Assembly: GCA_963555755.3 (NCBI GenBank)
Contig: OY820905.2
Location: 1,888,001 to 1,952,000 of the forward strand
Reading direction: 5' to 3'
Length of the DNA: 64,000 nucleotides
Origin: Nitrospirales bacterium
GTDB taxonomy: Bacteria; Nitrospirota; Nitrospiria; Nitrospirales; UBA8639
Shown here: positions 5,399 to 6,373 of the stretch, one piece after another
How the letters are laid out: each line of letters starts with the position of its first letter
How positions within the stretch are numbered: position 1 is the first letter of the stretch
Translations under genes and position numbers: made by a program
Notes under the pieces: model-generated
Told to the model about the DNA's origin: nothing
The model's database searches: none
Seen by the model: the letters and a program-made list of their open reading frames with translations, nothing else

Positions 5399-6373
5399 AT
5401 GAAATCAAAATCCTCAGAATTGTTTATCGGTATCGACATTTGTAAAGCTCGATTAGACGTGGCAGACAATGCCAATTCGCTTCCCTGGTCGGTAGCCAAC
5501 AACGACGCCGGCATCGCCGCGCTGGTGGAGCGGCTCCACGTCCTTCACCCCACTCTCATCGTGATGGAAGCCACAGGGGGGCTGGAAACGCTTCTGTATG
5601 CGGCCTTAACCACCGCCGGGTTGCCGGCGGTCGTCATGAATCCCCGTCAGGTGCGGGACTTTGCCAAGGCCCTGGGCACCCTGGCCAAAACCGATGCCCT
5701 GGACGCCCGAATCTTGGCTCGCTTCGGGGCGGCGATCCAACCGGCGGTCCGGCCCATGAAAGACGCCACCACCCAGGAATTGACGGCCTTGGTGACACGG
5801 CGACGGCAGTTGCTTGCCATGCAGACGGCGGAAAAAACCCGCTTCCAGCAAGCAGCCAAATGGATCCGCAAAGATATCAACGCCCATATCGCCTCCCTGG
5901 AAAAACGGCTCCACACAATCGAAGGTCATATTGCCGAGATTATTAAACAGACCCCCGGCTGGAAAGAGAAAGATTCGCTCCTTCGAAGTGTGCCGGGGGT
6001 GGGCAACGTTTTGTCAATGAATCTCCTCAGTAGCCTGACCGAACTCGGAACGCTCAACCGAAGAGAAATCGCCACGCTGGTGGGCGTTGCCCCCTTAAAC
6101 CGCGACAGCGGAAACGTGCGCGGCAACCGAAGGGTCTGGGGAGGCCGGGCCCAAGTCCGCGCCGCCCTCTACATGGCGGCCCTGTCCGCATCACGATTTA
6201 ATCCGGTCATCAAAACATTTTATCAACGCCTGATTGCACAAGGGAAAAAACCCAAAGTGGCCCTCACCGCCTGTATGCGAAAACTTCTGGTCATTCTGAA
6301 TACGATGGTCAAAACCCAAACAGCATGGAACCCAAATCAATATTCAACCCTTGACTTTAATCACGGTTGCTGA
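5399..6373 (+). CDS. IS110-family DEDD recombinase (transposase)
   Basis: RuvC-like DEDD residues in [15 protein letters not shown] and AKTDALDA; C-terminal SVPGVG, PLNRDSG (candidate catalytic Ser) and ACMRKLL; start at ATG 5399 after ggag. Confidence 0.97.
6351..6371 (+). promoter_or_regulatory. -35 half (TTGACT 6351-6356) of a sigma70 promoter completed by TATAAT (5160-5165) only in the circularised IS
   Basis: Joining right end and left end across one CT gives ttgact-ttaatcacggttgcttg-tataat, a 17-nt spacer. Confidence 0.85.

Follow-up and report, generated by a model that had tools for sequence, protein, structure and literature searches.

An IS110-family recombinase gene that borrows the end of its stop codon from a target matched by its predicted bridge RNA

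Where does a recombinase end when its gene runs to the very edge of its own mobile element? The question is raised by an IS110-like element in a 64,000-nucleotide stretch of DNA from a Nitrospirales bacterium (the window), in which the stop codon of the recombinase seems to be shared between the element and the host. A preliminary description, made from the letters of the DNA, proposed that the circular and integrated states of this element would make different forms of the recombinase, giving a switch for directionality or a check on correct target choice. We ask here whether the stop truly belongs to the host, whether relatives share it, and whether the longer protein implied by the circle looks like a product of selection.

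The element, its ends and its target

The element is bounded by CT cores at 5156-5157 and 6370-6371 (both on the forward strand), with an identical left boundary in 12 copies. The left non-coding end (5158-5398, forward strand) is 241 bp long and encodes the predicted bridge RNA, and the recombinase gene follows at 5399-6373 on the same strand, encoding 324 amino acids. Its last codons, CAC GGT TGC TGA at 6362-6373, are as previously described: the stop codon starts with the T of the right core and is completed by a GA from the host DNA. Also upheld is the earlier statement that the element has neither a right non-coding end nor a stop of its own. Its right end is present but overprinted by the last codons of the gene, within which lie the -35 box (6351-6356) and the left donor arm.

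The GA at 6372-6373 can be assigned to the host target, since the genome contains 72 unoccupied copies of the 14-bp sequence obtained by re-joining the empty target. This target lies within a 146-bp, MITE-like repeat that is bounded by terminal inverted repeats of 18 bp, its ends matching at 17 of 18 positions. The left part of the repeat (5133-5155, forward strand) includes one of these 18-bp inverted repeats as well as the left target arm (5149-5155), and the right part (6372-6492, forward strand) holds the target GA, a REP-like hairpin arm, a terminator-like hairpin (6455-6471) and a terminal inverted repeat. The genome gives 322 HSPs to the repeat, with 182 matches of at least 100 bp and 56 full-length ones. 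There are also forms of 121-122 bp without the REP-like hairpin of about 24 bp which contains the target, and the exact hairpin is carried by 66 empty sites. No flanking duplication of the repeat was common to the 2-bp flanks.

Thirteen matches to the element were found in the genome, eleven with both ends, one a 3' fragment and one lacking its right end, and all of the genomic copies are inserted in the same repeat, so that their BLAST flanks resemble element sequence. The stop consists of the core T plus GA in all eleven two-ended copies and likewise in the 3' fragment, that is, in 12 of the 12 copies that have a right end. The presence of twelve copies at 92-100% identity indicates recent activity. 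A copy with 92% identity (contig G000:C1, about 2149029-2150250) has lost its last 29 bp or so together with the core, and its frame ends in the flanking DNA to give 325 aa.

The recombinase matches PF01548 (E 3.5e-23) and PF02371 (E 1.8e-18), has the DEDD RuvC-like domain and the Tnp domain with catalytic serine typical of the group, and carries D13, E57, D99, D102 and S237, which are invariant in our alignment (A1). It is homologous to the ISCro4 (E 6e-37) and IS621 (E 5e-35) structures, a homology that stops at residue 312-316. The AlphaFold model of the 324-aa form is weak (pTM 0.42), with pLDDT below 50 from residue 303 and residues 307-324 as coil. Because homology ends at 312-316 and this weak model has the last residues as coil, the residues beyond that point are probably dispensable and C-terminal additions probably tolerated. 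A short core at both ends (CT and CT in the 11 intact copies), the long left non-coding end, and a predicted RNA whose loops for binding target and donor carry guides that fit these sites are all found at the level of sequence, and by these features the element is an IS621-like IS110 bridge-RNA element. The exception is the non-coding right end between gene and core, since here the gene reaches the core, an arrangement common to 17 of 173 distinct right ends of relatives.

The predicted bridge RNA and the putative junction promoter

The predicted fold of the left end has a pair of internal-loop hairpins, and the folding z-score of the whole RNA (-0.13) is uninformative. Four guides could be placed according to the IS621 template given in supplement 7 of PMC11208160, with which they agree in order and spacing. 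The left target guide (5281-5289, forward strand) matches the left target arm plus core at 7 of 9 positions; the remaining two mismatch the target in all 12 copies, and a perfect match is absent genome-wide. The right target guide, GACTCAG (5306-5312, forward strand), is the exact reverse complement of 6370-6376. The left donor guide (5348-5355, forward strand) is identical to 6363-6370, and the split right donor guide (5374-5382, as 5374-5375 and 5378-5382, forward strand), placed from the IS621 template, is complementary to the core plus 5158-5162, so that the donor guides fit the junction of the circle, at CT exactly. A search of 5000-6700, covering the bridge RNA and the host repeat region, gave no Rfam match.

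The right target guide thus spells out the GA that completes the stop codon, and this match between stop and predicted guide goes beyond what the preliminary description had observed. It is not peculiar to this element. The right guide pairs with at least 4 nt of the core and following bases in 77 of 83 clusters of relatives (shuffled partners: mean 30, maximum 44), and it does so in all six junction-stop clusters for which a left end is available.

A putative promoter is assembled only in the computed circle, where a -35 box TTGACT (6351-6356, forward strand) and a -10 box TATAAT (5160-5165, forward strand) are brought to a spacing of 17 bp. In most relatives the gene stops at the TGA within the -35 box, which is read through as Leu-Asp in this gene. 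A terminator-like site was looked for on the forward strand of the element and not found.

The borrowed stop among relatives

Among the 69 best protein clusters (65-98% identity), 63 finish in H[GS]C, the residues directly before the core. Five of the other six are shorter or have another end sequence, and one (P0050) reads on for 6 residues. The longer proteins of the clade (350-375 aa) owe their extra length to an N-terminal extension, not a C-terminal one. Where carriers of the clade have names, these are Nitrospirales/Nitrospiraceae, Nitrospinaceae and, for one protein, Marinimicrobia, and a scan of viral contigs gave one distant match only.

At the DNA level we considered 233 loci, of which 165 have their own stop, 30 a stop at the junction and 3 a stop beyond the core, with 35 unusable. 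Seventeen loci without a right-end motif, 11 with less than 40% identity and 3 without a C-terminus were left out of the counts, and 186 of the remaining 198 had the length needed for clustering. As many loci are duplicates of one contig, we counted by cluster or by distinct end: the 173 distinct right ends comprise 154 with their own stop, 17 with a junction stop and 2 reading beyond. Broken copies with a frameshift or internal stop (L032/L110, L034 and L236) were retained as evidence on ends. L180, which reads beyond the core, is unlike its five own-stop cluster-mates and may be an error; L026 is degenerate. In all 30 junction-stop loci the core is followed by GA, the other target bases differing. 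A further 23 loci added three new junction stops (again GA), one duplicate, 18 own stops and the exceptional locus L242.

L242 (G426:C35; 68% identity) has an intact gene without internal stop in a GG target, and its frame reads 26 codons into the flank. Its guide still spells GA, and its sequence diverges from the others right after CT, whereas the other relatives diverge right after CT-GA. A stop after the core is accordingly not absolutely required, to judge from L242 and P0050, two insertions found in nature at non-stop targets, which read past it by 26 and 6 residues. We also rejected a target check acting at the time of insertion, as L242 is intact in a non-stop target; the earlier suggestion of a check on target choice is not supported.

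The junction stops form three separate groups on a quick tree with an open backbone, and the starred branches of that tree force at least two changes. A single origin was rejected with p-AU 0.035 under a simpler model that, by the notes of the tool, rejected falsely in 5 of 71 trials. The borrowed stop probably arose two or three times, and within the clade it is conserved, by comparison of sequences, at 65-100% identity. The comparison with homologues called for by the preliminary description came out divided: the target-derived stop is kept across the clade, while read-through of the whole left end occurs only at 84% identity or above.

The circle and its longer reading frame

Joining the cores by script gives a circle of 1214 bp, in which the recombinase frame continues for 81 codons through the left end, for a protein of 405 aa in place of the 324 aa of the integrated state. 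The TGA ending this form (5400-5402, forward strand) overlaps the recombinase ATG (5399-5401) in ATGA, so that the computed frame agrees with the earlier description in its length, its end and its overlap. The other two frames of the left end contain several stops. Across the 11 two-ended copies the tail is 81 aa in ten and 79 aa in one, which has a 6-nt deletion. Since the recombination site lies inside the gene, translation of the window and of the computed circle gives different C-termini in the two states, and such a pair of proteins is likely provided that transcription and translation of the circle continue past its junction. What the sequence implies is two C-termini; the further idea that +81 aa is a conserved isoform is not supported.

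We looked for traces of the longer form. No circle joint was found over 5000-6600 in the contigs of four runs (two of them RNA), a kind of data from which rare forms drop out. None of the retrieved loci contained a circle junction, and the 14-bp donor site has a single match in the genome, a stretch of unrelated sequence. Thirteen longer proteins were candidates for carrying the 81-aa tail, none with E <= 0.001, and the tail has no Pfam match.

Relatives show how much of this tail is kept. In the genome studied and in L108, L031, L032 and L109 (84-100% identity) it is 79-81 aa, and the broken copy L034 has a tail of 102 aa. In L045, L234, L235, L236 and L242, at 65-76% identity, it is 30, 31, 14, 31 and 31 aa, stopping before the loop that binds the target, and overlap with the ATG is absent. 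Tails in the other two junction-stop groups are 26, 26 and 51 aa. Early in-frame stops in close homologues, which the preliminary description had named as speaking against its proposal, thus do occur, 14-31 codons after the junction, and the loss of the overlap in these five clade loci leaves the proposed ATGA translational coupling without support.

The preliminary description had allowed that the open frame might be chance. The borrowed stop is not, because it is conserved and matched by the guide; the open frame exceeds chance only weakly. For the single sequence the shuffle P is 0.038. Own-stop clusters, in which read-through is impossible, have this frame open across their entire left end in 24 of 81 cases, against 12.4 expected by shuffling, and it extends at least 14 codons in 56 of 81; the left ends of these clusters are shorter and slightly more GC-rich.

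Sixty-four distinct changes among five close left ends fall 21/19/24 over the three positions, compared with 52/32/197 in the recombinase gene, and synonymous changes in the tail frame number 18, with 17-19 expected. Because there is no bias by codon position and synonymous changes are as expected, the tail peptide does not appear to be under selection. Tail ends also vary in length and last residues among relatives, with no shared ssrA-like ending as judged by eye, and we therefore rejected the tail as a conserved peptide or degron. The openness of the frame is a separate matter. In the 84-100% subclade none of the 64 distinct changes creates a stop, with 1.0-2.6 expected (P 0.025-0.10 in a star simulation, which over-counts shared changes), L109 and L034 have a +1/-1 indel pair restoring the frame, and the tail ends at the ATG or one codon before it in five of five close sequences, as it does in the unrelated L074. 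There may be weak selection for an open frame in this subclade.

Interpretation

We favor the view that the tail read from the circle is a tolerated by-product and not a selected switch, and we would put its probability at roughly 65%; the longer circle form would then probably be incidental. An ancestor would have stopped at the TGA within the -35 box, and a frameshift in the loosely conserved tail would have shifted the frame. This would have been harmless as the element already targeted CT-GA, like many own-stop relatives, and such a frameshift could easily land on a ready-made stop because 68 of 152 own-stop ends have a stop-forming dinucleotide (GA, AA or AG) after the core. The TCAG of the guide would then probably have been held in place, and the comparison of related, non-independent sequences suggests that the guide is probably constrained by the stop. 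In the present element, low read-through transcription of the integrated copy would yield the 324-aa protein and the bridge RNA, followed by excision, after which the junction promoter would transcribe bridge RNA and recombinase mRNA round the circle. We infer transcription round the circle because the forward strand of the element lacks a terminator-like site; the host repeat has one at 6455-6471. Ribosomes would cross the junction and add residues encoded by the left end, 14-102 aa among relatives, until they reach a stop; cutting of the RNA ahead of the second-lap stop would lead to tmRNA rescue and tagging instead. Insertion at the next CT-GA site would restore the short form.

One alternative is that an RNA-guided transposon sets its own stop in its target, the long recombinase of the circle and the short one of the integrated copy differing in stability or in insertion/excision bias. 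The circle-made form might be unstable or biased, or its translation might be coupled to the next ATG and block the fold of the bridge RNA, with correct insertion at CT-GA giving the normal enzyme. If true, this would be a directionality switch at the protein level and a quality filter silencing off-target copies, and there is a precedent in the integration-dependent immunity of phage BPs described in PMC4557955. It would account for a strong promoter motif that exists solely in the state lacking the stop, for a frame that is open in five sequences at 78-91% left-end identity (one with a compensated indel pair), for tails that end at or next to the ATG in those five and in L074, and for a tail of at least 14 aa in every junction-stop element. 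Such open frames are also found, however, where no read-through can occur, in the own-stop clusters, and neither length, sequence nor C-terminal residues of the tails are conserved, nor is there codon bias. The ATG coupling is missing in the five clade loci at 65-76% identity, L242 has survived intact in a non-stop target, and the 154 of 173 relatives with their own stop need no such switch. The directionality of IS621, moreover, is already explained structurally in the account given in PMC13626964. We consider the selected switch unlikely, both as a general design and in the particular forms outlined above, and the directionality switch of the preliminary description is not supported by a tail that lacks codon-position bias and varies among relatives.

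Somewhat less improbable, though still doubtful, is that hardly any of the long form is made, because the junction promoter would give mainly a short bridge RNA or its RNA would end or be cut before the second lap; recombinase would then come from integrated copies acting in trans, or the circle would give a non-stop mRNA with a tmRNA-tagged product. An RNA of about 177 nt from the IS621 junction promoter is reported from small-RNA sequencing in PMC11208160, integrated IS621 copies are transcribed at a low level with action in trans possible according to PMC13626964, the genome studied has eleven intact copies, and neither a junction contig in four runs nor a predicted protein with the tail came to light. 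Those searches are weak evidence, however, as contigs drop rare forms; the element lacks a terminator-like site on its forward strand, and PMC12288879 regards the junction promoter as the only one that drives tnp in circles of IS621 and ISEc11. A last alternative is that the GA belongs to the element after all, through an error of boundary or assembly, and the location of every genomic copy in the same repeat, which makes BLAST flanks look element-like, lends this some color. It is nonetheless highly improbable given the divergence of relatives right after CT-GA, and of L242 right after CT, and it is contradicted by the 72 empty targets and the donor-guide match at CT.

Relation to known systems

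The closest known systems are IS621 and ISCro4 (PMC11208160, PMC13626964; PDB 8wt6, 9t56), which in the accounts given there share with this element the DEDD and Tnp domains, the CT core, a left-end RNA with LTG, RTG, LDG and split RDG in equal order and spacing, a -35/-10 promoter formed at the circle junction, and insertion into a repeat that bears a REP-like hairpin. In IS621, excision is supported by a low level of read-through transcription of the integrated copies, and insertion bias is ascribed to substrate and DNA geometry together with the handshake guides (PMC13626964). IS621 differs in having a non-coding right end (RE-LE 298 bp), whereas here coding sequence takes up the entire right end and the target supplies the last bases of the stop, which a 7-nt right guide matches. 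We found no IS110 element with a target-completed stop in the literature available to us, including the accessible portions of PMC11208160, PMC13626964, PMC11187229, 10.1101/2024.04.26.591405 and PMC12288879, while ISfinder entries may list such elements; the word "stop" is absent from the main text of PMC11208160, and "stop codon" from PMC13626964. The target-completed, guide-matched recombinase stop is a real, conserved and probably unreported variant of the IS110 design.

Borrowing a stop from the target has parallels in other families. IS630 uses its TA target for a stop. In the IS481 elements ISRme5 (PMC4803752) and ISLxc2 and ISLxx4 (PMC2516522) the transposase frame leaves the element and finds its stop in the insertion site, and the C-terminus of ISRme5 copies differs by site (PMC4803752). 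These elements differ from the present one in belonging to another transposase family with terminal inverted repeats, and the relevant passages describe neither RNA-guided targeting nor a circle isoform. Mycobacteriophage BPs (PMC4557955) likewise has its recombination site within a gene, the free circular form being C-terminally longer than the integrated one. The added residues described for BPs form a degradation tag on a repressor, and their function as a switch was tested, while the predicted extension here is on the recombinase itself, 14-102 aa long and without a conserved tag: inspection by eye found none of the BPs type at the end of the long form in relatives.

If two bases of the guide also set the end of the recombinase in these lineages, as seems likely, there is a natural constraint on bridge-RNA reprogramming, since retargeting or off-target insertion would alter the C-terminus. 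The annotated 324-aa protein may also differ from the form made off the circle promoter. This bears on the choice of orthologues for bridge editing, and the zero-length right end bears on how IS110 ends are defined. The element offers a simple test case for C-terminal additions on IS110 recombinases and for expression of the recombinase from the circle.

Other features of the related elements

Some variation in the ends of relatives deserves mention. The own stop is the TGA inside the -35 box in 93 of 154 distinct ends (for example L035, L042 and L047), which combines a promoter element and a stop in one motif. A Nitrospira subgroup (L036, L037, L044, L046, L095, L113, L123 and L130) has an extra 95 bp or so between the stop and the -35 box, placing the stop 113-116 bp before the end of the core, and the right ends of L063, L170 and L171 have a similar insert of about 70 bp with a hairpin-like look. 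The left end of L235 has lost about 50 bp of the 5' hairpin region and keeps both guide loops and the full gene. A 2.7-Mb genome (G487) carries 15 copies of a sister element that has its own stop (L239 and L243-L256), each inserted in one conserved target.
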